Source of the DNA: an uncultured Nitrososphaerota archaeon
GTDB taxonomy: Archaea; Thermoproteota; Nitrososphaeria; Nitrososphaerales; CADDZS01
Reading direction: 5' to 3'
Assembly: GCA_963799845.1 (NCBI GenBank)
Contig: CAWCYI010000004.1
Coordinates: 1,952,001 to 2,016,000, forward strand
Length of the DNA: 64,000 bases
Positions 28,649 to 60,559 of this stretch are shown piece by piece. Under the pieces are notes generated by a model. It was not told the origin of the DNA and did no database searches. It saw only the letters and a list, made by a program, of their open reading frames with translations. Both the position numbers and the translations under genes were made by a program. Positions within the stretch are counted from its first letter, which is position 1; each line of letters opens with the position of its first letter.

Positions 28649-29785
28649 TTGAGTAAGCAGCAGACTGTACAGCAACAAGAAACGATCTCACAAGAGCTCG
28701 CTCTGACCGAGGACGATCAGTATGGAATTATGGATACCTTAGACGACGACATTATTCGCCTAGAACTAGGCGGTATCCTAGTCAGCGAGCTCATCTACGA
28801 GTTCGATATGGCGACGAAACCGAATCCGACTCACGTAATTGGATTGACCGTTCACGGCGCGAATGAGATGGCACGTCTCGCTCTGAGAAAGCTCGATGTG
28901 GATATTCTCTGCGAAATGCCGATCACGGTAGAACGTCCTAACAGTTTCAAATCCTTTTGCAAAATAGCAATAGTCGAGCCAACTGGACGGCGTTTCGAGG
29001 TTTGGGGAGAGAAGATCCAACCGAAAAGCATCATCCGAAAAGATGGATCAGTAGCGAAGGAAAACGATCCCAACGCCGAGGTTATCTCGGACATGAAGGC
29101 ACAACGAAATGCGATACTCAAAATATTTCCACCCAAAACTTCCGCAACGATATTGAAACAGATCGAGTCGGACGGCGCGGATCCAAAAACAAAGACTATC
29201 AAGAAGCTCTCACCCGACGAGGTTCAGGCTGCTGCTAGAAAAGCAAGAGGCGTTGGCCGTGCCCTCGCGGTGGACAATGCGCCAGCCAAAAAAATCGAAA
29301 CCCAAGCCCAAGAGAAGCCTTCCGACAGTGTAGCTACTCAGTCTAACAAGCCCGCAACCACGACAGAGCCAGCCGAGAAGAAACCTAGCAATGGCAACGG
29401 TTCAACTTCTGCATCGGCCTTTGATGTTTCGGCAGTAAAGACACCTAGCAAGCAGATCACTGAAAAGGATCAGCAGAGGTTCCAGCAAATCATCGACGAA
29501 AACAAAATCCGTTTTCGGGTCTATGGACCTGGCAACACGAAGGAATGGATCGCAGACGATCCGAATTCAGAGGACGAGACGAAGCGATACGAGAAATATG
29601 CAGCACTTCGCCCCGTGAAAGGCAGTGGCGCAGAGATCCCAGGGTTCAACGATCTTGCAGCTTTTCTCACAGAGTTTGGCGGCACTTTCATCGAACCGCC
29701 TAACTCCCTGACGGGCAAGCCAGGCTTCATCTACGTCCTCGCGGAAAAGCTCGGAGAGACTGTAATTCAGCGCAAGATACAATGA
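28649..29785 (+). CDS. Hypothetical protein, possibly a phage-type single-strand annealing protein
   Basis: GLTVHGANEMAR...KAQRNAILKIFP core followed by a low-complexity linker; functional guess only. Confidence 0.45.
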   Translation: MSKQQTVQQQETISQELALTEDDQYGIMDTLDDDIIRLELGGILVSELIYEFDMATKPNPTHVIGLTVHGANEMARLALRKLDVDILCEMPITVERPNSFKSFCKIAIVEPTGRRFEVWGEKIQPKSIIRKDGSVAKENDPNAEVISDMKAQRNAILKIFPPKTSATILKQIESDGADPKTKTIKKLSPDEVQAAARKARGVGRALAVDNAPAKKIETQAQEKPSDSVATQSNKPATTTEPAEKKPSNGNGSTSASAFDVSAVKTPSKQITEKDQQRFQQIIDENKIRFRVYGPGNTKEWIADDPNSEDETKRYEKYAALRPVKGSGAEIPGFNDLAAFLTEFGGTFIEPPNSLTGKPGFIYVLAEKLGETVIQRKIQ

Positions 29786-31221
29786 GTTTGGCAACAATGA
29801 TCGCGGAACGGTCGATAACAAGTTGGTTTGAAGGTAGACCCTGCCCCCGATGCAACAAGAGCAAGACTGTCTGTGAAAACGGGCAGTTCATCTGCTCTGG
29901 CTGCGGCGCGGTTCTGAAAGAAGAATTCGAGCCAGAGACAGGCCCCCGTGCGCGGGTTAATTCCAAATCAATCTCGCCAAAGCTGGATCGCCTCTCGCGT
30001 CGCACGTTCATCGGAAGGTCAGACGCGATGGCCATGAAGCTGCCGACCATCCCGCTACAACGTCTGGATTACGACACCCAGAAAAGCGCGCAGTTCAACG
30101 ATTACCTGATTCGGACGGCAGACTACGTGGATAAGCTTGGCCTCGGAACCACGGTCTATGAGGAAGCGTACGGGATTTTGATTAAGGCGCGTGATAAGGT
30201 GCTTGTCCGCCGCTATGAACTGGCAACGGTCGCGAGCATTTACCTCGCTTGCAGAAAGCTGCAAATTTCCAGATCGCTTGAGGACATTTGTACGGTACTC
30301 CCCCAGTACGACCGCTGGAAGGCGTTGAAGGTCTATCGAAAATTGTGTGATGGGCTGAACGAGAAACCGCCGTCAGAAAATCTGGGTGGACTCCTGGCGG
30401 GGATCGCTGCGAGAGCCGGAGTACCGGAACCTGTAACTCGGACCGCGCTCAAGATGATGCAGAATTTAGCAGGGAAACAACTGTTCGCAGGATCTACACC
30501 AAGAGGTTTCTGCGCTGGATTACTCTGCGAGGCTGCGACGACCCACCATTACAAATTGCAGATGCCCGTTATCGCCAAAGCGTCCCACGCCAGCAACGAA
30601 ACCATTAGGCGACACTCGAAAAATATCCGCGTCGCGCTAGGCGGCAGAACTCGAATTAGAGCTGACGAAGAAAGAAAAAGAAATCCACACTCGGAATTTG
30701 ATGTTTCTCATTGCGGAAACGAATCGTCGTCTCAGGCAGCGACCATTTTCATTTTCAACAGGTTGATCGTTTTGAGTTTGGTATCACGCGACAACACTTC
30801 CACAAAGCAAAGTGCCTGGCAACTGCACCCTGACATTCAGGGCCACGCAATTTGGCACTATCACTGCAAACTCGTCAATCGTGTGAACGCGCTGATCCAC
30901 CTTTCCGAGCTCGCCGTGATCCCGATCATCCTCGTCAAAGTATCCTGCAAAAATTGTGGGAAAAAGCCAGAGCCTTTCCGACTCACAAACAAATGGAATA
31001 CCACTTGCCCTAAGTGCAAGTCTGATAACATCACCTTCACTACTGACGTTATGTATCAGGTCGTCTATCAGGATGGAGAACCCGAGAAGGATACCGAGAC
31101 CGAATTCTCCTATGCAGATTTCGAGAACCACGAGGAATTTGTCAAGTTCATCATGTTCCTGAACCAAGAGCGCGAGAAGGCTGGCAATCCTTTGATCGAG
31201 CCGTTTCCAATGAGGTACTAG
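29782..31221 (+). CDS. tfb: Divergent transcription initiation factor IIB (TFB) with C-terminal extension
   Basis: CPRC...ICSGCGAVL zinc ribbon, GP B-reader remnant, ASIYLACRKLQISRSLEDI cyclin fold, second repeat GSTPRGFCAG, IAKASHASNETIRRH HTH; extra CKNC/CPKC domain. Confidence 0.85.
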   Translation: MSLATMIAERSITSWFEGRPCPRCNKSKTVCENGQFICSGCGAVLKEEFEPETGPRARVNSKSISPKLDRLSRRTFIGRSDAMAMKLPTIPLQRLDYDTQKSAQFNDYLIRTADYVDKLGLGTTVYEEAYGILIKARDKVLVRRYELATVASIYLACRKLQISRSLEDICTVLPQYDRWKALKVYRKLCDGLNEKPPSENLGGLLAGIAARAGVPEPVTRTALKMMQNLAGKQLFAGSTPRGFCAGLLCEAATTHHYKLQMPVIAKASHASNETIRRHSKNIRVALGGRTRIRADEERKRNPHSEFDVSHCGNESSSQAATIFIFNRLIVLSLVSRDNTSTKQSAWQLHPDIQGHAIWHYHCKLVNRVNALIHLSELAVIPIILVKVSCKNCGKKPEPFRLTNKWNTTCPKCKSDNITFTTDVMYQVVYQDGEPEKDTETEFSYADFENHEEFVKFIMFLNQEREKAGNPLIEPFPMRY

Positions 31222-31223
31222 AC

Positions 31224-31411
31224 ATGGTTTCATTGAAAGCGACAAGAGATACGCGCTGAAGAATAATCCTGGCGGATTGTTTGCACAGGTCACCGCGGCG
31301 GAACCCAACGAGATCCCCGAGGCAGATTTCAGAGCCAAGCTTCCAGTCTGGTTTTCGATTCTCAAAATTGAGGAAGAAGGCTCGAGAAATTGCAAGCAAG
31401 TCTCACTCTGA
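31224..31411 (+). pseudogene. Frameshifted paralog of 23150-23452
   Basis: MVSLK|..YALKNNPGGLFAQVTAAEPNEIPEADFRAKLPVWFSILKIE. Confidence 0.65.
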
Positions 31412-31427
31412 TCTCTGAGGTTTCTGA

Positions 31428-31908
31428 ATGACAGTCCTGTTTCGTTTGGAAGCCTACACTTTCAACAACGCGTACGAAGTCTGGACCATCATGACAGCAT
31501 TGCCCATCCTGGCGATCCTCAGCTTACTACTTCGCCAGCCAGCTAATGTGTCGGCTTCCTTCTGATTTTCACGCTGTACATTTACGAGAAGAAGATATCT
31601 CCCGAGGCCGCAATTCAGGGATTCTTAGCCAGTCTTTTCAGAATGATCGGACTCGACCTGACAGGTGCGCCCTTTGCAGTTCCCTCGATCCTGAGTCTCA
31701 ACGGTCATCTGAATCTCTCGACCATCGCCAATACTGGTACGCGCCCTATGCTGATTTCCAGCTGATCAGCCTTCTCTCAGGTCCCTCGGGGATTGTCAAT
31801 TTCTGGCCTCATTTGTTTGTCCACGTCGCCATTCCAATAATTTTGGTGTCGATTGGTTTCCTGATCGCCCGTCCAAAGATGTTTGTGCAAATCGTCGAGA
31901 GACCCTAG
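31428..31908 (+). pseudogene. Multiply frameshifted membrane protein, paralog of 49702-50752
   Basis: PYADFQLISLLSGPSGIVNFW..FVHVAIPIIL..ARPKMFVQIVER. Confidence 0.65.
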
Positions 31909-32097: not shown

Positions 32098-32109
32098 TGT
32101 CGTACAATC
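32098..32109 (+). promoter_or_regulatory. TGTCGTACAATC motif upstream of the giant surface protein
   Basis: Starts 42 bp before ATG 32140; recurs before four other structural genes. Confidence 0.6.
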
Positions 32110-32139
32110 TGGCATTTTACTTACGTGAAGCTCGGTTAA

Positions 32140-35100
32140 ATGAGACTTAGCAAGCAAAATAAGCACGAGCAAAATCGGCGCAGGCTGATCATCGGACTAC
32201 TCGGCGCACTTTTCGCGCTGTCGATCCTTTCCTCGCTCAGTTCACTGGCCATTCAGAACGCTCTACCTTCGAGCGTTCAAAGCGTTCCTTCATCTGCACC
32301 GAACCGAAATTTCCTTTCGGACATTACATCATCAGTGTCAAATTTTCTAAGTGGAGCTGGGAAATCTATTGGGCAATTTATCGTAGCCAATTTCCCTCAT
32401 GCGAAGAATGTTTTCGCGAGTGGACCAACTTATGACTATTCAATGGATCAGGCGTGTGTAGCGTCGGGGTGTACTGGTTACACTGGTTCGAGTGCGTTTC
32501 CGACGGTTACGGCAGGCGATACCATAATTGTAACTGCTGATAGTGTTTCGAGTGCAATCAGTTCTTGCACGATTTCAGATAGCAGTTCAAGATTAACCTG
32601 GACGAGTCTAGGGATTTTACTATCAGCTCCGTACGGCGGGAACGGCGGCGGGGATTGGACGTGGGTGGGCGTTGCTACCTCGACTGGTTCAACAACTGTG
32701 AACGTGGCGAATTGCGTCGGCGGCAGCATAATACAATACATCGGTGAGCAATTTACTGGATTAGGCGCATACTCCACTGACCATACGGCCGAGAACTCGG
32801 GTTCACCCGTATCTGTTGGTTCGTTCACGCCGACGACAGGGCAGACGGTATATGCCTTTGGCACTTTTTACAATGTTAAAGGTGCGACAGTAGCATCAAC
32901 GGGCGGCGCAGTTTATTCAAACATCATCAATGGCATATCTGGATATGCGTCAAATCCTTCATCTGGATCTTGTGCTGGAATCTGTCAAGAAGTTGGAGAC
33001 ATGTATGGTCAGACTACGAGTGCTACTACTGCTAGTATGAGTTGCACGGGTGCAACAGGCGGAGACGAATCTGGCGGCGTATGTAGTCTTGGGGCAGAGC
33101 TTGTTTTAGTCTTTAACGCACCCACAATCATTCAGCCAATCCAATGCACGATGCAATCAGGATCGCAGCATCAGGCGACAATAACAATCTCAGGCGGCTC
33201 GCCATCTCCGTCGCCCTCGACCGTTTTATGCGATGGATCATCTCACAACGTTGCTGTTCAGGGCAGCATCACTCTAACAGCAACCGAGCCTGCTGATGGG
33301 ACGTGTGGAACATCATGCCGAGATCGATTCAGCGTTTCAAGTGCAGCAAGTACCACGATAACTGTTACATCATCAACATCAACTTGGTCCATCACTAATT
33401 ATGAACAATTAAGCAACACGTACCAGGTTACTGCGGAAGCTCAGACGGATTTTGACGCGAGCATGTCTTGGACGGTTACTGGAACGTTTCTCGGAGTTGT
33501 GGGTACCACAATTTGTACGATCTCATCCACGGTTGCGACGACCGATTCTTGCGCGGGTTACGCCGATTCTGATGTGGCAGTTACGATCCCTCAAGCCGCT
33601 ACTAGCCCACCTACAAATACAAGATGGCAATCGAGCGCGGCGTGTTCATCGACCGTAACAACGGGCGGGAACAGCGAGAACTGCAATTCGTATAAGCAAC
33701 TGGATAACACTTACCAAGCTTCCACGAATGGTCAGGGTCCGCCAACTTGGGATTCTGGATTAAGCGCAGTAGTTACAGGATCTCTTTATGGATCCACGGG
33801 TCAGAGCATTTGCACTATCAATCCATCATCGGGAACGACTACTACTGCCTCGTGTACTGGTTATGATGACTACGGTGCTGCCGCTACCGAACCCTCTACG
33901 ATGAGTGGAGCTGGATCAAATATCCAATGGAAGATCTATGGAACTGCATCCTGGACTGATACAAGTCCAAGTACTCACACTGGCACGTACTACAAGCAGC
34001 TTCGAAACACGTACCAAGTAACCGCCGAGGCGCAATCAACTTTCGATACCTCGATGAGCTGGACAGTTACAGGAACAGTCGGGGGTACCGGATCTTCAAC
34101 AGTCTGCACAATTTCATCAACCGCCGCTGCAACCGATTCGTGTTCTGGATATGCTGACTACGATCTAGGCGTTACCATTCCGCAGGCCGCGAGCTCACCG
34201 CCCGCGAGTACTCGCTGGCAATCTTCTGCTGCGTGTACATTTACGCAGACCTCTGGGGGAAATACAAACAACTGCAACTCGTACAAACAACTGACCAATA
34301 CGTATCAGGCTTCCACGAATGGGCAGGGTCCGCCAACCTGGGATAGCGGCCTCTCGGCAACTGTAACGGGATCGCTCTATGGAAATACTGGTCAAACGAT
34401 CTGCACCATAAGCCCCAGCTCAGGAACCACCACGACCGCGACATGCTCGAGTTATGCCGATTACGATGCTGCGGTTTCCGAGCCTTCAACGATGAGTGGC
34501 GCGGGATTCAATATTCAATGGAAGATCTATGGAACGTCGAGCTGGACAGACACCACGGGCGGCAACACCCATACGGGTACTTACTACAAACAGCTCTCGA
34601 ACACCTATCAGGAAACTGCGATCACACCGACGACCTTCGATACCAGTATGTCTTGGGCGGTAACTGGAACGGTCGGCGGCGTTGGATCTTCCGGAGTTTG
34701 CACGATTTCTTCGACCGCTGCAACCACAGACAGTTGTACGGCTTATGCTGATTACGATCTAGGCGTTACGATTCCTCAAGCGGCTTCATCTCCGCCTTCC
34801 GGTACACGTTGGCAATCTAGTGCCGCGTGTACTTTCACTCAAACCACAGGTGGGAATACTAACAACTGCAATTCGTACAAGCAGCTCGATAACACTTATG
34901 ACGCTTCTACAAATGGACAGGGGCCGCCAACTTGGGATTCGGGCCTTAGTGCTGCGGTAACTGGCTCGCTCTATGGTGTTACAGGTCAGACGATCTGTAC
35001 GATTAGCCCGAGCTCGGGTACTACCACTACGGCTACATGCTCGGGTTATGCGGACTACGACGGGGCAATTTCAGAACCTTCGACTATGGCGGGAGCTGCC

Positions 35101-38100
35101 AGCGGGATCCAGTGGGCGATCACTGGTACTGCATCTTGGACAGATACAACAGCCAGTAACACTCACACGGGAACGTACTACAAACAACTAGACAATACCT
35201 ACGATGCCGTTCCAAATCGGAGAACTACCTTTGATGGAATTTATTCAATCAGCGTCTCTGGTACGATCTTCGGAGTTGGTTCTTCATCAGTCTGCACAAT
35301 CACTACGTCGAACGGCGGGGGAACCGCGTCTTGCAGCGGATATGCAGACTACGATCTTGCGGTTACAGTTGGAACGATCTCGGGTGCGCCTGCATCTACA
35401 CGCTGGACGATAGTTGGCACTTCAACCTTCACAGATACGACCGGATCAAACACCCATTCAGTTGAGTACTACAACGAGATCGATAACACTTACCAGGTTA
35501 CAGCCGAGGCGCAAACTGATTTCGACGCGAGCATGTCTTGGACTGTAACTGGAACGTTGGGCGGTTCATCGGGTTCGACTATCTGCACGATCACGTCCAC
35601 TGTCGCAGCAACAGATTCCTGTTCAGGGTACGCAGATTACGACCAGCCTGTAATTATTCCGCAGGCCGCGTCTAGTCCACCAGCCAATTCAAGATGGCAA
35701 TCGACGGCGGCGTGTACCTCGACCTTAACCACGCCTAGCAACACGGAGAACTGCAACTCGTACAAGCAGTGGACGAACACTTACGAAATGGCGGTCGCGG
35801 GTTCCGTGAGTGGCTTCACTGTTGGCAGCGGCAGTGGAGAATCAATGGTAGTACTCGGCTACCTCTATGGATCCTCTGGACAAACGATCTGCACGGCAAC
35901 GGCTTCAAGTGGTGCGAGCGCGACCTGCTCTGGATATTCTGACAACGCCGAAGCTGCTACACTGCCCCAATTTCTGACAGGCGAGGCAGCAAGTACTCAA
36001 TGGCAGGACAGCAACGGCGGATCGCAATCATCGGGATCGATAACCTCTGGGGCGAACACTATCACGGCTGAGTACTATCTTCAACTCTCGAACACCTATC
36101 AAGCCTCGACAAATGGACAGGGGCCGCCAGATTGGGATTCCGGCCTTAGTGCTACCGCGACAGGAACCTTACTCGGGGTAGCGAGTCAAACCATCTGCAC
36201 GATCTCTCCGAGCTCAGGAACGACGACGACCGCTGGATGCACAGGATACGCGGATTATGATCAGCCAGTTTCCGAGCCAGCTACGATGAGTGGAGCTGGA
36301 TCCAATATCCAATGGAAGCTCTATGGAACGTCGAGTTGGACTGACACCACAGCGGGAAATACTCACACAGGCACATATTACAAGCAGCTTCAAAATACGT
36401 ACCAAGTTTCTTCTCACGCCCAAACCGATTTTGATAATGGCCTCTCGTGGTCTATAACTGGTACGATCGGCGGGGTCGGGAGCTCATCGGTCTGCTCGAT
36501 CTCATCGACCGTTGCCGCAACTGATTCTTGCTCGGGCTATGCTGATTACGATCTCGGGGTAACTATCCCTCAAGGGGCCTCGGGAGCTGCCGCGAATACA
36601 CGTTGGCAATCAACAGCAGCCTGCACTTTCACCCAGACAACAGGTGGGAATACGAACAACTGCAATTCGTACAAGCAACTCACCAATGCTTATGCCGCAA
36701 ATCCCGTTGCCCCAACTACATTTTCAGCGAGTATCACCTTCGCGGTTACAGGATCGCTCTATGGAGTAACTGGACAAGCGATCTGCACCGTATCGGTTCC
36801 AGGCTCTCCGTCCTCGGGTAGCTACAACTGCGCGGGATATGCTGACTATGACGCTGCGGGTTCAATCGCGTCGGCGGCCTCGGGTTCCCCTACAAATCAG
36901 AGATGGGAAGTTTCTGGAACGGATTCGTGGACCGACACCACTGGCGCAAACACGCACACCGCGAATTACTATCTGCAAGACTCGACCACGGTTTCTTACT
37001 CAATCATTGGTGGCGCGGGAGCTTCCTCTGCCCCAACTCTGACGTACACATATCTCGGTACAGCTGGCACTACCTATTCGATGACTGTAACGCCAACAGT
37101 AGTTTGGCAGGACAATGGAAAGACATGGACCGCGACGAATCCTCTGCCTGGATCGGGAGCTAGCGAAAGATGGGATGCCCCCACCGGCTATTCAGGCTCG
37201 TCCACTGCTGGCGAAACTATTGACCCGACGTACTACAATCAATTTGATGTTACAGTTACGATCACTTCGATTGATGGTTCCATTCCTGGGCCGAGCGATC
37301 CCACTTTCAGTTACTCGCAATTCGGCAGCCCAGCTACCCTGACAGTAGCGACCTCGCAGACAACTTGGGCAGATGATTCTCAGGCATGGAGTATCACAAA
37401 TCCAATTTCAATTTCCAGCACGGAAAGATTCGATTCGCCATCGACGACCAGCGGCACGATCAGCGCGGCCTCGACCTTCCCCATCACGTACTACCATCAG
37501 TACAAGCAGGGATTTGAGTACAGCGTCGTCGGTATCAGTACCGGATCATCTCCGCCAACTTTCAAATTCTTCTACGAGGGAACGGTGAACAGCACCACGC
37601 TTTCAACGTCGCCAGCTCAACTCTGGCTCGACGCAAACCCCGCAGTTTGGAATTCCACGAATCCGCTGACGGGTTCAAATTCAACCGTGAGTTGGATGAC
37701 GGGAACGCCGACTGGCTCTACGTCAAGCGGTGGAGGAACAACGAACATTGTCTACGATCTAGCCTATGCGGTCATCACACTGTTCAATCCCGACTCGCTG
37801 ACCATCCAGTTCACAAACTCGACAGGTAGCTACACTAGTACGACTTCGCCCCTGAACATCTCGCCTGGCTCTACTTTCACGGTCGTTGGATCCAATTTCA
37901 ACGGCCTCTTTGAAATATCCACTAACGGCTCAACGATCTATCAGGTACCAGCAGGCTTCGGAAATGGAATCCAAGTCTTAAGCTCGGTCAGACTAAATCT
38001 TTTCAATTTCACGGCGGGAGGCACAAATCCATTCTTGAACATGACTGGAACGAGCGCAACGGTGATCGTACTAGATCCAGTTCCAGCAACAGGACTTTCG

Positions 38101-38775
38101 TACGTCTCGACCACGGTAGCGGGATCCTCTTACTCGCCGACTTTCTCACAGAGCAAAACGGTCATTCAGGTTACAACGACAGGAACACAAAATATTCTGA
38201 TGAATTTTGTCGTCGCGGGCCCAGAGACACAAACGCAATGCGTCGGTCCAAGCTGCGGCGGCGGAAGCACTACCGTAACTGCAACGGGAGAGGCTGGCGG
38301 CACAAGTACACTCATCCAGAATGGACAGGTGAGTGTAGAAGCTGGAAGCCCATCGAACCGAACGATCTCGCTGGTTTTGGACAACACCCAATCATCCGCG
38401 ATTACGGAACTGACCCAGCTCAGTTTCTCTAGCATGAGCAATGTTCAGGTGGTCTACAATCCGAGCGAGCTACCGATCAATGTTGGCAGTGGCGATACGG
38501 GTAGTGTTCCAGTCCAAGTACAATACAGCAGCCTAACTCCTGGTTCTTACGTCATCAACGGAACGGCGACCTTCACCCAGTACAGCAGCCAGACCAATTC
38601 GTACGTAACTCTGCACAGCGGATTCACGATCACGCTGTTCGTTCAGGCCCTAACTGGAAAGAGTGATGGATTCAATTTCGCGGCATTTCTAACAGCCTAT
38701 TGGTGGGTTTTCATCAGCGCGGCAATCCTCGCGGTAATTGGTATTGGTTTATTCATTAGAAAGACTGGACGTTAG
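32140..38775 (+). CDS. 2211-aa Ser/Thr/Cys-rich surface or adhesin protein with about 12 tandem ~100-aa repeats and a C-terminal TM anchor
   Basis: N-terminal basic+hydrophobic signal; repeats begin QLxNTYQ; C-terminal TM followed by RKTGR. Confidence 0.9.
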   Translation: MRLSKQNKHEQNRRRLIIGLLGALFALSILSSLSSLAIQNALPSSVQSVPSSAPNRNFLSDITSSVSNFLSGAGKSIGQFIVANFPHAKNVFASGPTYDYSMDQACVASGCTGYTGSSAFPTVTAGDTIIVTADSVSSAISSCTISDSSSRLTWTSLGILLSAPYGGNGGGDWTWVGVATSTGSTTVNVANCVGGSIIQYIGEQFTGLGAYSTDHTAENSGSPVSVGSFTPTTGQTVYAFGTFYNVKGATVASTGGAVYSNIINGISGYASNPSSGSCAGICQEVGDMYGQTTSATTASMSCTGATGGDESGGVCSLGAELVLVFNAPTIIQPIQCTMQSGSQHQATITISGGSPSPSPSTVLCDGSSHNVAVQGSITLTATEPADGTCGTSCRDRFSVSSAASTTITVTSSTSTWSITNYEQLSNTYQVTAEAQTDFDASMSWTVTGTFLGVVGTTICTISSTVATTDSCAGYADSDVAVTIPQAATSPPTNTRWQSSAACSSTVTTGGNSENCNSYKQLDNTYQASTNGQGPPTWDSGLSAVVTGSLYGSTGQSICTINPSSGTTTTASCTGYDDYGAAATEPSTMSGAGSNIQWKIYGTASWTDTSPSTHTGTYYKQLRNTYQVTAEAQSTFDTSMSWTVTGTVGGTGSSTVCTISSTAAATDSCSGYADYDLGVTIPQAASSPPASTRWQSSAACTFTQTSGGNTNNCNSYKQLTNTYQASTNGQGPPTWDSGLSATVTGSLYGNTGQTICTISPSSGTTTTATCSSYADYDAAVSEPSTMSGAGFNIQWKIYGTSSWTDTTGGNTHTGTYYKQLSNTYQETAITPTTFDTSMSWAVTGTVGGVGSSGVCTISSTAATTDSCTAYADYDLGVTIPQAASSPPSGTRWQSSAACTFTQTTGGNTNNCNSYKQLDNTYDASTNGQGPPTWDSGLSAAVTGSLYGVTGQTICTISPSSGTTTTATCSGYADYDGAISEPSTMAGAASGIQWAITGTASWTDTTASNTHTGTYYKQLDNTYDAVPNRRTTFDGIYSISVSGTIFGVGSSSVCTITTSNGGGTASCSGYADYDLAVTVGTISGAPASTRWTIVGTSTFTDTTGSNTHSVEYYNEIDNTYQVTAEAQTDFDASMSWTVTGTLGGSSGSTICTITSTVAATDSCSGYADYDQPVIIPQAASSPPANSRWQSTAACTSTLTTPSNTENCNSYKQWTNTYEMAVAGSVSGFTVGSGSGESMVVLGYLYGSSGQTICTATASSGASATCSGYSDNAEAATLPQFLTGEAASTQWQDSNGGSQSSGSITSGANTITAEYYLQLSNTYQASTNGQGPPDWDSGLSATATGTLLGVASQTICTISPSSGTTTTAGCTGYADYDQPVSEPATMSGAGSNIQWKLYGTSSWTDTTAGNTHTGTYYKQLQNTYQVSSHAQTDFDNGLSWSITGTIGGVGSSSVCSISSTVAATDSCSGYADYDLGVTIPQGASGAAANTRWQSTAACTFTQTTGGNTNNCNSYKQLTNAYAANPVAPTTFSASITFAVTGSLYGVTGQAICTVSVPGSPSSGSYNCAGYADYDAAGSIASAASGSPTNQRWEVSGTDSWTDTTGANTHTANYYLQDSTTVSYSIIGGAGASSAPTLTYTYLGTAGTTYSMTVTPTVVWQDNGKTWTATNPLPGSGASERWDAPTGYSGSSTAGETIDPTYYNQFDVTVTITSIDGSIPGPSDPTFSYSQFGSPATLTVATSQTTWADDSQAWSITNPISISSTERFDSPSTTSGTISAASTFPITYYHQYKQGFEYSVVGISTGSSPPTFKFFYEGTVNSTTLSTSPAQLWLDANPAVWNSTNPLTGSNSTVSWMTGTPTGSTSSGGGTTNIVYDLAYAVITLFNPDSLTIQFTNSTGSYTSTTSPLNISPGSTFTVVGSNFNGLFEISTNGSTIYQVPAGFGNGIQVLSSVRLNLFNFTAGGTNPFLNMTGTSATVIVLDPVPATGLSYVSTTVAGSSYSPTFSQSKTVIQVTTTGTQNILMNFVVAGPETQTQCVGPSCGGGSTTVTATGEAGGTSTLIQNGQVSVEAGSPSNRTISLVLDNTQSSAITELTQLSFSSMSNVQVVYNPSELPINVGSGDTGSVPVQVQYSSLTPGSYVINGTATFTQYSSQTNSYVTLHSGFTITLFVQALTGKSDGFNFAAFLTAYWWVFISAAILAVIGIGLFIRKTGR
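33406..36975 (+). repeat. Intragenic ~300-bp repeats of alternating subtypes
   Basis: A type VTAEAQTDFDASMSWTVTG, B type ASTNGQGPPTWDSGL; conserved CTI...CxGYAD. Confidence 0.9.
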
Positions 38776-49701: not shown

Positions 49702-50752
49702 TTAGAACCCATCTGCGTCTCGCTCAACGATTGCGAGGAACCACTTCGGCTTTGCCAGGACGAGGGCAATCGTAAGCAGTATGATCGGAATTATGACGTG
49801 GGCGGAGAAATCGATCCAGAATGTTACGAGGCCCGAGGATCCAGCTAGGGCGCGAATAACCTGAAAATCCCCGAATGGTGAAAGTGCTGGATTAGATACA
49901 AGTGTGAATCTGCCGCCAAGCGTCAGGATGCTGTACATGGAGTACGGAAGGGCGATCACATCTCCACCGATTAGAGCGAGGACCGAAGCTATGGATCCTC
50001 TTATCGCAGCGTCGAAAGTATCACTCTGCTTGTAGATCGTGTACGCAAAGAGAAAGAGGAACAGGTCGTACACTGTTTGAGTTACGTAGTAGAGGATGAA
50101 GGTCAGGATCGGGTTTGTCGCGGAAGCACTCCAAGCCTCATATTGATTGTTCAGTAAGTCAGCTCCATATCGCTGCCATAATCAAGACGACTAGGAGAAG
50201 GTACGCTTTCAGTTGGTCTTGACGCTTTGAGGAATATCCGCCGACGATCTCTATGAACCAATGCGGCTCTGCGATAACTAGGGCCGCGCCCAAGAGTAAA
50301 ATTGGAAAGATCACCTGACTTCCAAAATCATTCCAGAAAGTTACCACGCCAGACGGACCCGCGATGAATCGGATCAACTGATAACCGCCGAAAGGGGTCA
50401 GCAGCGGATTGGGAACGAGTATCAGGGTTCCGCCAAAACTCAGGATGCTGCTGGTTACGTGTGGCAGCGACATAACATCAAGACCAACGAGGGCGAGAAT
50501 CGAGGCAATCGTTCCCCGAATTGCAGATCCTAGAGACTTGTCAGATTTGTACACGTTGTACGCGAACAGGAAGATGAAAAGATCGTAGAGGGGCTGACCG
50601 AAATAATACGCGAGGACAATCAGGATCGAGTTTGTACTTGGAAGCGCACTCCAAAGGACGTAATCATTGTTCAGGACGTACGCAAGAATCGCGGCAGCGA
50701 TGAAGTTCGCGAGAACGAGATAGGCTTTCGCCGCTGTCCTGTTGAACGCCAC
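49702..50752 (-). CDS. Tandem duplicated multi-TM protein (two homologous units joined by a frameshift at about 50160)
   Basis: Both units contain KAYL.L...LNN.Y..WSA, YDLF.FLFAY, AIRG.IAS.LAL.G.DV, PFG..Q.IR..AG.SG.VTFW. Confidence 0.7.
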
Positions 50753-52013: not shown

Positions 52014-52025
52014 TGTCGGACAATC
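52014..52025. promoter_or_regulatory. TGTCGGACAATC motif (palindromic TGTC-G-GACA) between divergent genes
   Basis: 37 bp before ATG 52051 and about 30 bp before the minus-strand start at 51992. Confidence 0.55.
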
Positions 52026-52050
52026 CGAAAAAGACTTTTTTCAGTTAAGT

Positions 52051-53146: not shown

Positions 53147-54025
53147 TTGCCCAAGAACTACTTTCTCGAACCTCGCCATAGACGAATGATCATTGTCATA
53201 GTGATCGTGGCAGCGATCCTGATCGGTGGGATCGCGATTGGTAGTTTCCTGATAGTGAACGCGAGCTGGCAATGCGGCCAAGTTCAGCAGGGCAATTTCA
53301 ACGTAGCCTGCACATCCAACCCAACGGGAACTGCGCCGTTCTCTTATGTCTGGAATTTCGGAGATGGATCGGCACTTTCATATTTGCAGAATCCGACTCA
53401 CCAATATTCCTCAGCGGGAACGTACACGATTACCTTACAGATCACTGACGGCAGCGATGCGATCTACAAGAATTCGCAGAGCCTCTGCGTCGCTGATTCA
53501 AACGGGAATTGTCCAACGGTTAGAAGCACGAGCCCTAGTTACTCTGCGACAATCAGCGCGTCCAGCATGAATCCAGTCGTCGGCAGTTTCGTGAATTTCG
53601 ACGCGAACATTCAGGGTGGAGTTTCGCCTTACCTGTACGCCTGGAACATCGCGGGGTCAGCTTCCTCACTTCCAAGCCCGAGTTACCAATTCCAGAATCC
53701 CGGATCTTATCCGGTACAGCTGACTATCGTAGACTCGAAAGGCAATCAGATCAGCAGCAACATCATCTACGTCCTAGTTGGGTCCAGCTCGACCACCTCG
53801 GGACAGAGCTTCCAAGCCAGCACAAGTTCGACAACGAGTTACAACAGCTTCTACCTGACTTCATCAAGCAGCCAGTCCACACAAATCACGACCAGTACGA
53901 CTCAGAGCGTTGCAAGCACCACGAGTACATCTGGCATCAGCAGCGAGGAATTGTTCATAGCTCTATTCGCGGTCGTAATCGGATCTGCCCTCGCCGTGGG
54001 GATAGTGGCGAGCAGAAAACACTAA
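53147..54025 (+). CDS. Two-PKD-domain surface protein with N- and C-terminal TM
   Basis: YVWNFGDGS...NPTHQY...GTYTITL; TM followed by RKH. Confidence 0.88.
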   Translation: MPKNYFLEPRHRRMIIVIVIVAAILIGGIAIGSFLIVNASWQCGQVQQGNFNVACTSNPTGTAPFSYVWNFGDGSALSYLQNPTHQYSSAGTYTITLQITDGSDAIYKNSQSLCVADSNGNCPTVRSTSPSYSATISASSMNPVVGSFVNFDANIQGGVSPYLYAWNIAGSASSLPSPSYQFQNPGSYPVQLTIVDSKGNQISSNIIYVLVGSSSTTSGQSFQASTSSTTSYNSFYLTSSSSQSTQITTSTTQSVASTTSTSGISSEELFIALFAVVIGSALAVGIVASRKH

Positions 54026-54055: not shown

Positions 54056-54067
54056 TGTCGTACAAAT
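54056..54067 (+). promoter_or_regulatory. TGTCGTACAAAT motif upstream of the pilin-like gene
   Basis: 43 bp before ATG 54099; intergenic. Confidence 0.6.
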
Positions 54068-54098
54068 TCAGAGATTTGCTTTGTTTTCTGACGGTCAG

Positions 54099-55247
54099 AT
54101 GGAATCAGACCAAAATTTACGCCCAAAAACTAACGTCGCGCAAAAGATCGTAGAAGCCCGCAACAGCGGCAGAGGCCAGAAAGCGGTTACGCCGATAGTA
54201 GCGGCGGTCATCGCTATCGTGATCACCCTGTTGATTGTTGGAGCTGTCGTCTACGTCGCTTACGTGATGCCAAGTTCAGCCAACCTCGTCTCAACCAGCA
54301 CATCATCATCCAGCAGCACAACTTCGTACACTTCTGCGTGTACCAGCGGGACACCTTACTACTGCGGAACACTAAGCTTTACCGCAAGTGGTCAGGATCA
54401 CTTCTCGTCCACGACAGCATACACCACGGCGAGTAACATCGCAGTAACCCTGTTCACGAATCCAACTGGAAACGCTTTCCAAAGCTTAGGGTCGGTCCCT
54501 AGCGGCGGAACGCTTTCAGCGAACCTCGCACCCAACGCCAACGGAATCATCTACGCAGAAGTTGGTCCACAGTCAGGACAAAGCTTGTACGTAGATACAG
54601 CCCTCACGATGGCGCGGAACACGCCTTACATACAGGGATGGACTTACCAGCCAGTCGACAACACGAACACGAACCACTTTGTGTTCAAGCTGAATACCGC
54701 TGGAATCCCGGTAGCGTCAGGAATCACGCCGACCTTCACCTTCTACCCATACTTCATTGCATACAGCGCAGTAACGCTCTCCACACCCACGAACATCACA
54801 GATGTTGGAACCTCGTCAGTGAACGAATTTGTCCAATGGACAACTAGCCTGGCGACCGTGAACACTGGTGCAGAGATCACAGAGGCGATCCTTACAGTCA
54901 ATAACACCAACCCCGCAGTTGCACAGCCACTCTACTTGAATAACCCGACAGTTGGGGCAACAGGAACGATCCCACTCTCGGCGATGACAAGTACTCTACT
55001 GAGCAGCAGCTACCAGTACAGCTACTACTTCACGACAAGCAAGACCACGACTGACCTGAGCTCAGGCGCGTTTGTAACTTACGGACAAAACGCTCTAAAC
55101 TCAGCAGCATGGACATTCGCATACACTAACAACTTTGGGGCATGTACAGTTGCCTGCGGCGGAGTCGCCATAACTTTGCAGCTCTACGTGCTGCAACCAG
55201 CGGGAACACCCGTTGTAGTGCAAACTCAATGGACCGCGAGCAAGTAA
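54099..55247 (+). CDS. Secreted protein with class III (pilin/archaellin-type) signal peptide
   Basis: RGQKA|VTPIVAAVIAIVITLLIVGAVVYV; beta-rich Thr/Ser body; no C-terminal anchor. Confidence 0.75.
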   Translation: MESDQNLRPKTNVAQKIVEARNSGRGQKAVTPIVAAVIAIVITLLIVGAVVYVAYVMPSSANLVSTSTSSSSSTTSYTSACTSGTPYYCGTLSFTASGQDHFSSTTAYTTASNIAVTLFTNPTGNAFQSLGSVPSGGTLSANLAPNANGIIYAEVGPQSGQSLYVDTALTMARNTPYIQGWTYQPVDNTNTNHFVFKLNTAGIPVASGITPTFTFYPYFIAYSAVTLSTPTNITDVGTSSVNEFVQWTTSLATVNTGAEITEAILTVNNTNPAVAQPLYLNNPTVGATGTIPLSAMTSTLLSSSYQYSYYFTTSKTTTDLSSGAFVTYGQNALNSAAWTFAYTNNFGACTVACGGVAITLQLYVLQPAGTPVVVQTQWTASK

Positions 55248-55320
55248 AATCTTGTGAGGATTACAGGGCGTAACAAATCAATCCCACTAACGAAATAATC
55301 TGCGCCCACAGCGCAGACCC

Positions 55321-55355: not shown

Positions 55356-55592
55356 TTGCAGAGATCTCGGACCAAAATCTTCGCGCAAGATCGCGAGGAT
55401 AGTACCGGCGGCCTCATTACTTGGATGCTCGTTTCTGCCGTTGTCGATATTCTGCTGATTCTGCTTTCGCTTGCAGAGGGAACCGAGGACACCGCCTTTG
55501 CGTTCCTGATAATGGGACTGATCGCTTTCGTTCCTCTAATGCTGCTACGTTTTGAAGCTGAAGAAACCGATCAGCGAGCCAGTCTATTTTGA
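55356..55592 (+). CDS. Small two-TM protein
   Basis: Two hydrophobic segments; coupled to the protease gene. Confidence 0.5.
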   Translation: MQRSRTKIFAQDREDSTGGLITWMLVSAVVDILLILLSLAEGTEDTAFAFLIMGLIAFVPLMLLRFEAEETDQRASLF

Positions 55593-56503
55593 GAAACGAG
55601 CTTTCTTGGTGGGATCTGCTTATCGGATTTCTGACGGGCGAGCTCGTCTTGGCGGCGAACATTATCGCCGTTTCTTACGATCTGCTGAGTGGAAAATTCG
55701 ATCTAGTACCGTCGAATGTTCTGCCATCGGTCGCGTACAATTCCATTCTTTACGTGCCGCAGTTTTTCACGATCCCCTCGGCGTTCTTTAACGTGATAAT
55801 TAATTCCGTGAGCCAGTACGTTTTCACGGCTTGGGGAGAGGAACTGATGAAAGCAGCCGCGATCTACGGACTGTATCGCCTGACGAAGAACGGCCCAGTC
55901 TCAGTTGCAGTGGCGATTGGTGTCTGGGCGGGAGCTCACACAATTCTTGCGGGTTTCAGTCTTTTCGAGGTCATGCTGGCCGCCTTCTCGGGAGTCGCTT
56001 TCTTTTTCGCGTGGGCCCTGACTGGAAATCTGATCACCGCGATTCTGGCGCATGGAACATACAACGCCTCGATCACGATCCTCTCGGCAGCTCTCGTTCC
56101 TAGTGCAAGTGGGTTCATCGTACCTTTGCTCGCGTACAACGTGATTACGGGTGCAGCGATCTATTTCGTCGTGTGGAAGCTATCAGGCATGTCGTACATC
56201 CGCAGTTTTGGGTTTTTAGGATATGGCCAGCAGGGCAGCGGTAGCGGCGGCACTACTCATCAGCGTCATAATTTTAGTGTCAGTTTTCATCGTGATCATT
56301 CCGTCGATTCAATCAGGAACCTTTTCGATAGGATTGCCAAAAGGGGCAAGTCTAATCGGACAAGCTCCGATCTCAGTAACGGGAATCAGTCTCTCACAGG
56401 GCGGGTCGATCCAAAATCAGTACCTCATCAACACGTATTGGGACGTGGCTCTATCCGTACGTGGTTTAACAAGCACAGCCTTTCTCAAGTTTGGTCCTGG
56501 TAA
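55589..56503 (+). CDS. CPBP/PrsW-type intramembrane glutamic protease (C-terminal tail overlapping the next gene may be artefactual)
   Basis: EELMK, WAGAH, AILAHGTYN motifs in a multi-TM protein. Confidence 0.8.
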   Translation: MRNELSWWDLLIGFLTGELVLAANIIAVSYDLLSGKFDLVPSNVLPSVAYNSILYVPQFFTIPSAFFNVIINSVSQYVFTAWGEELMKAAAIYGLYRLTKNGPVSVAVAIGVWAGAHTILAGFSLFEVMLAAFSGVAFFFAWALTGNLITAILAHGTYNASITILSAALVPSASGFIVPLLAYNVITGAAIYFVVWKLSGMSYIRSFGFLGYGQQGSGSGGTTHQRHNFSVSFHRDHSVDSIRNLFDRIAKRGKSNRTSSDLSNGNQSLTGRVDPKSVPHQHVLGRGSIRTWFNKHSLSQVWSW

Positions 56504-58452
56504 CGCCAGCGCATCGGTCAGCCTCGGGAACGGCGGCACGGCTACTCCCCAATCGCAGATCTATGTTAGGATAGATCCTGGAACGCCGTACGCCCAAGTT
56601 GCCCTAAGGCCGATCAATATCGAGTGGTCGCCAGCTTCCTCGGGATGGGGAGATCCGAGCAAAGGCGTGTTCTGCGGTGTAGTTCTCCAATTCACAGGTT
56701 GCTTCCAGTACACATATCACTCCAATCCAGCACAGACGACTACCTTCTACGTTCCAGCGCAACAGTACCTGGACGTTCCACTATCCAATGACGATCACCG
56801 TTCAGAAAGTTGGTGGAACCAATCCCTTCACAGAGAGCCAGAAAATTGACGCTGTAAGCCAGAACAGTGTTACAATCGGTGCGCCCAATGATCCCGATGA
56901 GAATGTAACGATTAATCAGCTCGGATTTAATGCGGGTGCTTTGAGTCAGGTACCCGTCGGCACTCCAATCTTCTTCAATGGCGGTTCAGTTTGCGGTACG
57001 GCCAATCTCTGCGGCTTTGCTGGCGATGCACAATCCCAGATCCAGAATTACGCGCAGTATTGGTACGGCAGCGAGACAACATGGCCTTCTCTCGGTTACA
57101 ACATCTGCAACTGCTCGACCCCAGGACAGAATTTAGGCAACACGCAAGATAATCCAGTTCAAGCGTACTACCCCGGCCATCCAGGCTGGAAACAAATCGA
57201 GACTTACAACAACGGACAGACCCAGTACACGTACCAACCCATTGCCCCAAGTCTTACCACAAATACGCCAGGCTTGACCAGCAATCTGATCTACAACGGC
57301 TACACGAGCAGCGGTGGAATTGGACAGGGAGACAGCGAGAAGAATTCCACTCAAGCGGGCCTCTCATTTCTGAACTGGATGTACGCCCAAGCTCCGAAAG
57401 TTATCGGCGGCGCGGTCGACCCTTCACTAACGGCGTACTCAAATCCTTACGGGAATTCAAATCCGTGGTCAGTCTCGACGCAGCAGCTTACCATAGATCT
57501 TTCTGGATCGGGTTCGCTTCTTTCCAGCGTGATCATTCCCCAGACGCAGCTTTTGGTTAGCACGAGTCTTGCAGACACAGTGGTAAATCAGGTGAATTCC
57601 GCACCGTTCACCATCACTCAGATCGCTGCAACATCAAGCACACTCGGCGGCGGTCAGATTACAAACCTCGGGGTTACGGTCCAGAACACGGGCAGCTATC
57701 CTGGAAGCGCGACCCTATCATTTTCGCAAAGCGGTGATTTGATTAGCCTCTCGCCACCAGCCGCGACCTTCACATTGAATAATGGCGCGAGTCAAACTTT
57801 CAACTTTGCAGCAACGGGACTGTACACCACAACGCCAACTTCCGACCAACTGACTTTCTTCGTGATGAATTCCGCAGGATTGGTTACGGATTCCAAAACT
57901 TTTACGTTCACCGTCCAACCGCCACCCCAAGCTGGATCCACTGAGTTTAAGATCACAAATGTTTCGCTTCCTAAATCCGTGGCCGTTGGGGCGCAAGTGT
58001 CAATGACGGTCGACATTCAATCAATCGGCATAGCTGGAACCGCGTTCATCACTGCCACATCAGCCTCGAATCAGATCGCCAGCGTGAACCCGACCCACAT
58101 CAATCAAACAATGGGATCTGGAAACACGGTACCTGTTGGATTTACTGTCGTCGGAGTTGCGCTGCCCACGGGAGTTACACAACAGAGTGTTACCATCGAC
58201 GTTCAGGTTTCAAATGGATCCGCGATCTCGGAATCAATGGTGTCCATTCTCGTAACTTCAACGGGCGGAGTTCCGTGCATAATCAACTGCAACAACAATA
58301 ATTCTAGCGGCATATCTCTGACCGAAATCATCGCGATCATACTTGTGGTAGTAGCTGCGGGCGCGGGAATCGTCGCAGTAGTGAAACGGAAGAAAGGGCC
58401 GTTCAAAAATCCGATAAAAAGAAGAAAATCGCCCTTCAAGAGAAAACGCTGA
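56223..58452 (+). CDS. Large surface/envelope protein (~740 aa) with Ig/CARDB-like domains; frameshift at about 56768
   Basis: N-terminal TM in 56223-56849; WTFHYP|MTITVQK continues in 56788-58452; VTVQNTG; C-terminal TM and highly basic tail. Confidence 0.75.
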
Positions 58453-58945: not shown

Positions 58946-58964
58946 GAAATCGCCTTTTTGGAAT

Positions 58965-59105
58965 ATGGGATACATCAGAGACAGGCTGGATGCAATCGAC
59001 AAGAAACATGCCCACCGTTTCACCAGGAAGAACGCTGTCATCATAACATCGATCCTGATAGCAGTAGTAGTGGTTCTGGAAATCATCGTCGTACAGATCC
59101 ACTAA
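58965..59105 (+). CDS. 46-aa single-TM microprotein (not in ORF track)
   Basis: MGYIRDRLDAIDKKHAHRFTRKNAVIITSILIAVVVVLEIIVVQIH. Confidence 0.45.
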   Translation: MGYIRDRLDAIDKKHAHRFTRKNAVIITSILIAVVVVLEIIVVQIH

Positions 59106-59121
59106 ATCTTCTTTTTCTTGC

Positions 59122-60559
59122 ATGAACGCCTCGAAAGTTCTGGCGATTCTCTTTGTGGTCCTTATCGCCAGCGGATTCCTAGTCTACTTTTTCACGCCGA
59201 TCTCATCTGCGGCTACGAATATTTGGTGCTTCCCGCAGAATCCATTAGCGAGTTGCAGTACAAGCTCTTCCTCGGGAACGACTACCATCTCGACTAGTAC
59301 GCAGCAAACTACCCAAACTGGAACGACCGTTTCCAGTTCAAACAATGCCATTAGTTTGAGTGTTGGGAACAGGAATCCCCAGATCTCAATCGGCGGCAGC
59401 AGCAACGATCCCTTCACAGTTACGACTAGAATACCGTTGAACATCACGGCCATCGCGCCCTCGGGATTTGTGGTTACTCCTAGTCCAAAGGCGATCTCTA
59501 CAAGTTCGCCAACAACGGTTGGCTCGGTTTCGATCTATGTGCCTAACTCGATCACGTATGGGAATTATGTAGTAACTTTAGAGGCGGTTTCAGGTCCGAT
59601 CACAATCGTTACTCAGACGATCACGGTTACAGCTACAACGCCAACTCCTATCGAGACGCAGTATTACTACGGGGTCGTTTCGCAGTTCAGTTTGAACATC
59701 ACCAGGGCTTTCGTCGGCGAGGATGGAAAGCTGACAGGAAGCGTGAGATTGGATGAGCTATTCGGCGCGGGCGGCGGTGGCGGCAGCGTAACCACGAATT
59801 CCAATGGACAGGTTTCAAACAGCGGAATTTATCCTGCAATTCCCACGGTCGGTTTTACAAAGTACTGGGTTACAATTACCTCGACGGCTGCACCAACAGC
59901 ACCTAGTACGTCGTACTTTCTCGCGAGCTTTGAAGTGTTCGGTACCCTCAACAATCCGAATGAGATCGCGAATACTGCTGGCTCGACAGTCTACACCGCG
60001 AATGGGTGGGGAATCTATCTCTACTCTCAGCAAATTCCTCTCTCGGGTGGGAGCTTTTCCGTGCAGTTCAATAACACTGCTCTAATTGATGGAGAGTTCA
60101 ACGCACAGGCCGATTTGCTTGGTCAAGCACAGATACCAGGAAATATGGCAAACATACTGACAGCGTATCGGGATCCCAGTGAGTGAAGGTCAGGGCTATG
60201 CGGGGGTCATCAGTACCGTTCAGATCAACGACTATCGCAACGTGCTGGACAATATCGAGACAGTGAACGATATTTTGCAAATTCCTTCGACACCAAATCC
60301 GCTTAATCCCGCCTTGTCCACTTCGACCACTAGCACGGTAACAAGCGTCTGTCTCGGGGACAGGCCCCAAGTCTGCTCGCTTTCGCTGCTGCAAAATGGA
60401 TTCGCGTTGAATCTCGCGGGAAGTGCCTCGGGCGGCCCTGGCATAACTTCGTTCTGGACCGTTGCGACAGGAACTCTGTGGCTTGTTGGGGGAGCTGGGA
60501 TGATCGGCGTTCTGGTCTACTCGCTGCGCGGACGCAAACAAGGAAAATGGCACTATTGA
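59122..60559 (+). CDS. Surface protein(s): 59122-60186 plus 60179-60559, possibly one frameshifted gene with N- and C-terminal TM
   Basis: N-terminal TM in the first ORF; C-terminal TM and RGRK in the second; 8-bp overlap. Confidence 0.7.

Follow-up and report, generated by a model that had tools for sequence, protein, structure and literature searches.

Can a mobile region integrated into an archaeal chromosome carry a promoter word of its own, and which protein would read it? The question is raised by a stretch of 64,000 nucleotides, hereafter the window (C4:1952001-2016000, C4 being contig CAWCYI010000004.1), from a metagenome-assembled genome (MAG) of an uncultured Nitrososphaerota archaeon (GCA_963799845.1). 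This MAG comprises 4.6 Mb in nine contigs with 47.5% G+C, is 86.7% complete with a contamination of 4.87%, and McrA was not found in it. It probably belongs to the Nitrososphaerales, to which NCBI assigns a relative of one of the island proteins. Within an island of seemingly mobile DNA, described further below, genes for surface proteins are preceded by the word TGTCGKACA (K is G or T), and the same island encodes a diverged transcription factor B (TFB). An earlier note on this DNA had proposed a sigma-like switch, in which this TFB, or a winged helix-turn-helix (wHTH) protein of the element, redirects the host RNA polymerase (RNAP) to promoters of late, structural genes that lack a TATA box. 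We find that the word, widened to YGTCGKACA (Y is C or T), is specific to the island, directional, located at promoter position and accompanied by a second, T-rich part. From this we infer, with a probability of about 0.7, that YGTCGKACA and its T-tract form a functional, island-specific and directional promoter element.

Eight sites of the same build carry this reading. The five in the window had been listed before, and both their positions and their distances to the start codon (42, 37, 43, 33 and 35 nt) proved correct. Coordinates without a prefix are those of the window, numbered on past its end where needed.

32098..32106, + strand: motif TGTCGTACA, 42 nt 5' of the ATG at 32140 that opens the gene of a 2211-amino-acid (aa) surface protein
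52014..52022, + strand: motif TGTCGGACA, a perfect TGTC-N-GACA dyad, 37 nt 5' of the ATG at 52051
54056..54064, + strand: motif TGTCGTACA, 43 nt 5' of the ATG at 54099
56190..56198, + strand: motif TGTCGTACA, 33 nt 5' of the ATG at 56223
59087..59095, + strand: motif CGTCGTACA, the C variant, 35 nt 5' of the ATG at 59122
C4:2025724, C4:2029499 and C4:2062827 (the last on the - strand): further motif sites beyond the window

TGTCGKACA occurs four times in the window, always on the + strand (32098, 52014, 54056 and 56190), against an expectation of 0.73; at least four copies were reached in 1 of 100 shuffles. The shorter GTCGKACA is present nine times against 2.93 expected, a count that was reached in none of 100 shuffles. 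Its other copies comprise the two at 14963 and 50065 that were already on record, one at 14684 (G variant) and one at 28368 (- strand). Throughout the genome, TGTCGKACA is found at 67 sites in 4.6 Mb compared to approximately 69 expected from base composition (hand calculation). As this is chance frequency, the signal lies in the position of the motif and not in its number. Seven of the 67 sites stand 28-48 nt 5' of an ATG that opens an open reading frame (ORF) of at least 100 aa, or six if only the first ATG of the ORF is considered. Five of these six fall within 42 kb (C4:1984098-2025724), and the C variant at 59087 is one more site with the same placement beyond the TGTCGKACA count. Among 150 control words of matched composition, 46 of 4721 occurrences (0.97%) are so placed, and none of these words has more than two such placements, be it in total or within 50 kb. 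YGTCGKACA occurs at 125 sites genome-wide, ten of which have at least four T in the downstream tract described below; half of these ten lie in the island before start codons. No cluster of the motif exists elsewhere in 300 other genomes of the order, two of which (G007 and G259, unpublished) contain one isolated match each. Two G095 copies that share a 13-nt stretch with site 52014 were dropped, as they lie in an AT-rich repeat with no ORF after them. Two statements of the earlier note concern the surroundings of the sites. No site precedes the genes of 21274-29782, in line with its remark that none was seen before the early genes. It had also placed two copies inside upstream ORFs, which holds for 56190 (in the doubtful 3' tail of the + strand ORF 55589-56503) and not for a second one.

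The build of the motif was derived from an alignment of the eight sites (five in the window and three outside). Seven of the nine positions (G, T, C, G, A, C and A) are invariant in all eight; position 1 is T in six and C in two, and position 6 is T in seven and G in one. Every site is oriented toward its downstream gene. The alignment reveals no palindrome beyond the 9 bp and no information in the flanks, so a recent duplication of the upstream regions is unlikely. The second part of the element is a T-rich tract that starts 13 nt downstream of the motif:

32120-32125, + strand: T-rich tract after site 32098
52036-52041, + strand: T-rich tract after site 52014
54078-54083, + strand: T-rich tract after site 54056
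56212-56217, + strand: T-rich tract after site 56190
59109-59114, + strand: T-rich tract after site 59087

Counted from the motif start, this tract occupies +22..+27. In the seven sites with an ATG, 30 of its 42 letters are T, compared to 11.2 +/- 3.0 in host upstream controls at the same distances, and a count of 30 was obtained in none of 20000 resamples.

The place of the motif is that of a host promoter. In host upstream regions, CTTAAATA and TTAAATAA are enriched, and these TATA words mostly start at -40..-31 from the ATG (30-38 nt before it in a stricter set, n = 39). The motif starts 33-43 nt before the ATG and thus takes the same place. It is not followed by a clear TATA box, as had been noticed before: the best match to TTAAATA has two to three mismatches at each of the eight sites. 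None of the eight motif promoters comes within one mismatch of this word, compared to 144 of 1083 host upstream windows and 44 of 2000 random windows. An archaeal core promoter has an AT-rich TATA box about 26 nt before the transcription start, preceded by a purine-rich B recognition element (BRE). The motif itself is G+C-rich and has no such composition. At 56223 (+33 from the motif start), the ATG cannot be moved downstream without loss of the signal anchor, so transcription would start at or before +33. With this geometry, the T-tract would fall into the region that melts, and the word itself would coincide with the TATA position.

What the motif precedes are mainly genes for proteins at the cell surface. 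Six of the eight first genes encode an N-terminal transmembrane (TM) segment, and in a seventh unit the surface protein is the second gene. The products of the motif units are rich in Ser and Thr. PKD domains occur in two of them, and several have a C-terminal TM anchor followed by a basic tail. Of the claim that surface or structural genes follow the motif, the membrane and surface units therefore stand, whereas the framing as 'structural' or 'late' genes of a virus finds no support. The motif is also found before the genes of a soluble protein of 156 aa (77525; C4:2029525-2029995) and of a small, very basic protein of 84-90 aa (C4:2062536-2062808, at the C4:2062827 site). The units in the window are:

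32140..38775, + strand: 2211-aa giant protein with an N-terminal signal anchor and internal repeats, no family match
52051-53145 and 53147-54025, + strand: two PKD-domain Ser/Thr-rich proteins, each with an N-terminal TM segment, a C-terminal TM anchor and a basic tail
54099..55247, + strand: 382-aa secreted or anchored protein with a hydrophobic N-terminal segment
55300-55342, + strand: hairpin with T-run, 3' of gene 54099-55247
56223..58452, + strand: surface protein, split in the assembly (56223-56849 and 56788-58452)
59122..60559, + strand: surface protein, split in the assembly (59122-60186 and 60179-60559)

The N-terminal segment encoded at 54099 is one that we ourselves take to be pilin-signal-like. 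Site 52014 lies inside the 58-nt gap that separates the divergent genes 51992(-) and 52051(+). The two split genes were compared with independent short-read contigs. Frames 56223 and 56788 become one 742-aa ORF once a one-base difference at 56768 is applied (one independent contig), and 59122 and 60179 become one 478-aa ORF with a one-base difference at 60165 (three contigs from two runs and two studies). These single-base differences imply that the assembly or the strain carries frameshifts and that the true targets are four large anchored proteins. Altogether, single-base indels relative to short-read contigs or near-identical proteins are seen at 56768, 60165, 55560, 55598 and ~30667-30685; they look like either long-read assembly errors or strain-specific frameshifts. 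As a further observation on the giant gene, at least four repeats encoding ...NCNSYKQ... lie at 34279-36667 and are part of a local excess of the word TCGTACA.

RNA contigs (at least 99% identity) cover only 54098-55285 of the 20 kb compared, which corresponds to gene 54099-55247. The 5'-most of them starts at 54098, one base before the ATG and 42 nt past the motif start, and none extends upstream across the motif at 54056. As a hint, this cover would suit a gene transcribed on its own, from a promoter that comprises the motif, into an mRNA that is leaderless or nearly so. The parts of the 20 kb without RNA contigs are no evidence of silence. RNA pieces at 52546-52580 were discounted as a sign of expression, since they match a Ser-codon repeat and have loose ends on both sides. 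In a contig from a diverged strain, 56083-56189 cannot be aligned, and the alignment resumes at 56190, the first base of the motif. An atlas look-up returned weak leads only, to Ig-like surface proteins, all with scores <0.9. Gene 54099 has a single distant homologue (32% identity) on a Bathyarchaeota contig (L015:4245-6531), where motif-like words occur at chance (15 vs 18.25 expected). On that contig, a homologue of the Rce1-like CAAX protease encoded at 55589 lies two genes downstream of the 54099 homologue, a gene order that suggests a conserved pairing of surface protein and membrane protease.

Taken together, YGTCGKACA would mark at least seven transcription units for membrane-anchored or secreted proteins in the island, taking the place of the host TATA/BRE. 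Transcription is predicted to start some 30-33 nt after the motif start, just past the T-tract, which would leave leaders of 0-12 nt. As no host-type TATA is found at these promoters, positive control is favored here: the host machinery alone would ignore them, and a DNA-binding factor of the island would recruit the TATA-binding protein (TBP), TFB and RNAP. The motif with its placement, orientation and clustering, the T-tract, the lack of a TATA and the in-situ RNA of one target gene are observations; the promoter role, start site, mode of control and identity of the factor are proposals.

Several points weigh against this reading. The T-tract window of +22..+27 was picked post hoc, from data already seen. 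In a crude gene set, 939 of 1083 host upstream windows also have no near-consensus TATA, so being 'TATA-less' discriminates weakly, and the gene starts are the ORF calls of this analysis. The spacing between motif and ATG varies by 10 nt which, if the mRNAs are leaderless, is a misfit for a core-promoter element. Many membrane-protein genes of the island have no motif (50777, 85999, 88055 and others). The RNA data stem from two peat metatranscriptome samples of one study, and contig ends are not RNA ends, which makes position 54098 a start-site hint only. Finally, the Bathyarchaeota homologue of gene 54099 has no motif upstream and sits in an operon.

Given a promoter element, which factor would read it? 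One possibility is that the motif is the site of a separate regulator, either an activator upstream of a weak core promoter or a repressor over a core promoter. Among the readers considered we hold this to be possible, at somewhat less than even odds. The candidates would be a small island protein or a ParB-like protein acting like KorB, with the TFB unrelated or a partner. Such a reader would suit the near-palindromic form of the motif (TGT-N3-ACA) and the perfect TGTC-N-GACA dyad between the divergent genes, and two ParB-family proteins are encoded in the region (25992-27293 and L002:18686-19726). The motif before the genes of the soluble and the very basic protein would fit autoregulation. 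EarA, which binds upstream of the fla promoter, is an analogue of such a regulator. Others are the A(N)TTTC boxes upstream of the UV-induced ups and ced promoters of Sulfolobus (PMC6101591), and TFB-RF1 and Ptr2, which recruit TFB/TBP (PMC5569661). On the other hand, all eight sites have one orientation, which a symmetric dimer does not need, and the perfect dyad is found in only one of the eight; a dyad without preferred orientation, as in the operator of a symmetric dimer, is thus not what the sites present. At 9 bp, the motif is also shorter than parS and KorB sites, which measure 13-16 bp. A repressor would find no underlying TATA to mask. The wHTH proteins that the earlier note had invoked did not materialise, as neither wHTH nor any other DNA-binding family was detected in the small island ORFs, even at E up to 10.

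The second possibility is that the island TFB paralogue itself reads the motif, much like an alternative sigma factor for the surface genes of the island. In that case, either YGTCG would serve as a BRE variant with TACAWW as a degenerate TATA, or BRE/TATA would be replaced by the word as a whole. The TFB is the best named candidate for the reader, yet we consider this assignment doubtful. The relevant ORFs are:

29782..30766, + strand (native frame end ~30766): TFB gene, with putative Zn ribbon, two cyclin repeats and a diverged helix-turn-helix (HTH)
30958..31221, + strand: small CxxC...CxxC Zn-ribbon ORF, joined to the TFB by a frameshift only

That 29782 encodes a real TFB with an altered HTH, as previously stated, is borne out. 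Its putative N-terminal Zn ribbon matches PF08271 at 24.5 bits, below the cut-off of 29, with C21, C24, C38 and C41 invariant in a five-sequence alignment. The cyclin repeats match PF00382 (37.5 bits, cut-off 23.6) and NF001658 (over residues 116-284), and the TFB chains in the structures 1AIS and 1D3U can be aligned to residues 118-282, both cyclin repeats included (E 2e-8). The recognition helix aligns as well, but reads ASNETIRRHSKNI, where five of eight host paralogues have VTEVTIRNRYK. Only four relatives were found among 5.8 billion proteins (271-327 aa), and the variant helix is kept in P0002-P0004. The first of these, P0002, is near-identical to the window TFB over the first ~304 aa, and its C-terminal tail equals exactly the window frame +1. 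The 'extra Zn domain' attributed to this TFB does not hold up: in the 479-aa window ORF (29782-31221), a one-base shift in an A-rich run at ~30667-30685 prolongs the frame to 31221 and thereby fuses the small Zn-ribbon ORF. Relatives of 284-327 aa agree with the usual TFB length of about 300-330 aa with no additional domain. Because of the other indels in the window, this frameshift is likely an assembly error.

In favor of the TFB, no other transcription factor can be recognised in the block of site 32098, its core aligns with structurally known TFB chains while its helix variant is conserved, and the motif is directional and located at the BRE/TATA position. Moreover, TFIIB homologues are reported on every thaumarchaeal integrative and conjugative element (ICE; PMC6563490), and in archaeal type IV pilus loci they outnumber all other predicted regulators (PMC4858521). 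Nonetheless, all but one of the eight sites are 20-80 kb away from the TFB gene, in other blocks, and at least seven further TFB paralogues are encoded by the host, several of which have diverged helices too. The TFB HTH reads ~6-7 bp beside a TBP-bent TATA, and we know of no precedent for a TFB that uses a GC-rich 9-mer or initiates without TATA. Canonical BRE geometry would put the start after the ATG at three of the eight sites (+33, +35 and +37). The frameshift in the assembled TFB gene, even if perhaps an assembly error, counts on the same side, as does the scarcity of relatives: none exceeds 35% identity in the 300 genomes of the order, and no homologue occurs in the 12 family genomes at E <= 1e-20. 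The TFB query matched nothing among genome contigs or viral contigs, and in metagenome contigs it recovered only two (2285 and 2489 nt), neither with the motif. The genome as a whole has nine TFB matches, including that of the window, and two full TBPs. Approximately 23 kb before the window, a truncated TFB (164-aa frame) adjoins a single-repeat half TBP (122-aa frame; C4:1927711-1929158); these may be remnants of another element or a split pair.

That the motif has no role in transcription, being a chance cluster, a duplication relic or a partition or methylation site, is very improbable: the chance frequency genome-wide, the local TCGTACA excess (28 vs 8.4 expected) that stems partly from the coding repeats of the giant gene, the presence of methyltransferases and ParB proteins and the short palindrome GTAC at the core would agree with it, but position, orientation and T-tract register are far beyond the controls, the non-aligning flanks make recent duplication unlikely, and nothing would oblige a centromere or methylation site to stand 33-43 nt from a start codon, always facing the same way.

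With the island-specific promoter element as the preferred reading, the next question is what kind of DNA it belongs to. The span 29782-59122 had been regarded as one element. It is instead a mosaic of G+C-rich blocks parted by blocks of transporter and enzyme genes, with four of the five window sites outside the block of the TFB. Features of the island that have not been listed above are:

21274..22554, + strand: tyrosine recombinase/integrase
25992-27293, + strand: ParB_N-DNA methyltransferase fusion
27761-28627, + strand: second N6/N4 methyltransferase
31546..31908, + strand: frameshifted, truncated membrane-protein paralogue, of the family of 49702-50073(-) and 50159-50752(-)
L002:6261-9545 and L002:10199-13387, - strand: two paralogous intein ORFs (phrog_7035), one intein with a LAGLIDADG domain
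L002:18686-19726: second ParB-family protein

The block of 21-39 kb comprises the integrase, the ParB-methylase fusion, the second methylase, the TFB and the giant gene. It is followed at 39-49.6 kb by a stretch of lower G+C with MFS, NMO, TPR/AAA and pterin dehydratase genes; this stretch may be cargo, as the NMO gene is present in none of the 12 family genomes. A second G+C-rich block (49.7-60.6 kb) contains four motif sites, and G+C-rich ORFan DNA is found again from 69 kb to ~113 kb, with two intein-containing HerA/FtsK-like ATPases, ParB, DUF6876 and LPD29. The membrane-protein family of 31546, 49702 and 50159 is the only gene family common to the first two G+C-rich blocks; the 50159 paralogue family is absent from the 300 genomes of the order. 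The exteins of the intein ORFs give weak HerA/FtsK-type matches, one of them to HerA models (8.9e-6 in NCBIfam, 0.0013 in PDB), and the two ORFs flank the motif site at C4:2025724.

The integrase, TFIIB homologue and ParB-like gene that characterize thaumarchaeal ICEs are all present. For the ATPase pair VirB4/TrbE and VirD4/TraG, Pfam AAA_10 and T4SS-DNA_transf gave no match in the island; VirB6, TadC, secretion ATPase, prepilin peptidase and pilins gave no Pfam, NCBIfam or PHROG match in the scanned ORFs, and the T2SSE matches all lie elsewhere in the genome, outside the island. No att repeat was found: direct repeats that link the integrase side to the region downstream do not exceed 14 nt. 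We take this DNA, at least 90 kb in length, for an integrated mobile mosaic similar to a conjugative element, rather than for a proven single element. A virus was considered and set aside, as no PHROG capsid, portal or tail match was obtained. The only head-and-packaging PHROG matches are a weak one to phrog_2666 (terminase-like; a HerA/FtsK-type ATPase) and a weak one to phrog_2973 (Hoc-like, E 1.6e-6; 53147-54025). The context thus looks more like a conjugative or cryptic integrated element than a virus.

Some further observations concern the surroundings. An IS110-family transposase gene is split by a group II intron (2662-5586; Rfam matches at 2959-3078 and 4801-4883; reverse transcriptase (RT)/maturase ORF at 3595-4791), and an IS66 transposase is located at 7010-8395. 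The stretch with a CLC channel and a P-type ATPase (13067-17487) has a ~97% identical copy on contig C7 (39829-42585), which would stem from a large duplication or from the merging of two strains in the MAG. A tandem copy of TGTCGTACG followed by TGTCGTACA lies with a T-rich stretch at C4:2131574-2131611 (- strand, including the site C4:2131602, one of the ten with at least four T in the tract); no ORF of at least 30 aa starts from the expected ATG, the next 1.5-2 kb are ORF-poor and there is no Rfam match. Another word, GGATAGTGCTT, is present in eight copies against 0.47 expected at window coordinates 90395-108470, and several of these copies are close to where - strand genes begin. This could reflect a further regulatory word or a coding motif conserved at protein N-termini.

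The broadest conclusion to be drawn would be that a mobile-element TFB acts as a true promoter-specificity factor, whose altered HTH reads a G+C-rich word replacing BRE/TATA, such that TATA-less promoters of surface or transfer genes fire only when this TFB is made. We regard this as unlikely. If it were true, archaea would have an equivalent of alternative sigma factors, and the TFBs found with conjugative elements and pilus loci would gain their first defined cis-element. Either way, the locus offers a sharply defined candidate target, namely a 9-bp word plus T-tract at the TATA position of at least seven promoters near such a TFB, which turns a general speculation on TFBs into a direct binding or in vitro transcription experiment. 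Should the promoters indeed work without a TATA box, this would be informative on how strictly archaea depend on TBP/TATA. With a different regulator as the reader, the locus would still be a clear case of a mobile element with its own regulon, in a soil archaeon that is uncultured.

How does the element compare to known systems? It shares with the canonical BRE/TATA the distance to the start codon, the directionality and an A/T-rich stretch before the predicted start. The island word differs in being G+C-rich with seven invariant positions, and is neither a purine-rich BRE nor an AT-rich TATA. KorB, of the ParB family, binds short palindromic OB operators that are spread over IncP plasmids, many of them just upstream of transfer-gene promoters. 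These OB sites are 13 bp long and symmetric and repress transcription, whereas the island word is a putative site of 9 bp that always has one orientation.

That TFBs occur on conjugative elements of thaumarchaea and in pilus loci has been published before. TFIIB is encoded by every thaumarchaeal ICE, in most cases next to ParB (Krupovic et al. 2019, PMC6563490), and among the regulators predicted for archaeal type IV pilus loci its homologues are the most frequent (Makarova et al. 2016, PMC4858521). A regulatory role has thus been predicted in the literature. The likeness to the island is that of a TFB paralogue on an integrated element, near a ParB-like gene and beside surface or membrane genes. 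The island differs in that VirB4/VirD4, TadC and prepilin-peptidase signatures were not detected, and in that its TFB comes two genes after the ParB-methylase fusion, while the ICE TFIIB, as far as that source describes it, directly precedes ParB. No cis-element for these TFBs is given in the available parts of PMC6563490 and PMC4858521 ('promoter' is absent from the main text of the former), and none for element-borne TFBs turned up in a non-exhaustive literature search.

Another parallel is Sulfolobus, where TFB3 and the A(N)TTTC box control ups-pilus and ced genes (Schult et al. 2018, PMC6101591; Le et al. 2017 cited therein). There too, an alternative TFB paralogue controls genes for pili and DNA transfer, with a short non-palindromic upstream box for which an unknown partner was proposed. 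TFB3, however, has no HTH and acts with TFB1 on a normal TATA/BRE, with its box 30-80 bp upstream of the start, whereas the island TFB keeps a diverged HTH and the 9-mer lies at the TATA/BRE position with no TATA. Lastly, archaeal viruses use the normal TATA/BRE, to which SIRV1/2 promoters add a GTC word (PMC5569661). That word lies downstream of a normal TATA and adds to it instead of replacing it; like the island word, it is an extra promoter word specific to a mobile element in archaea.

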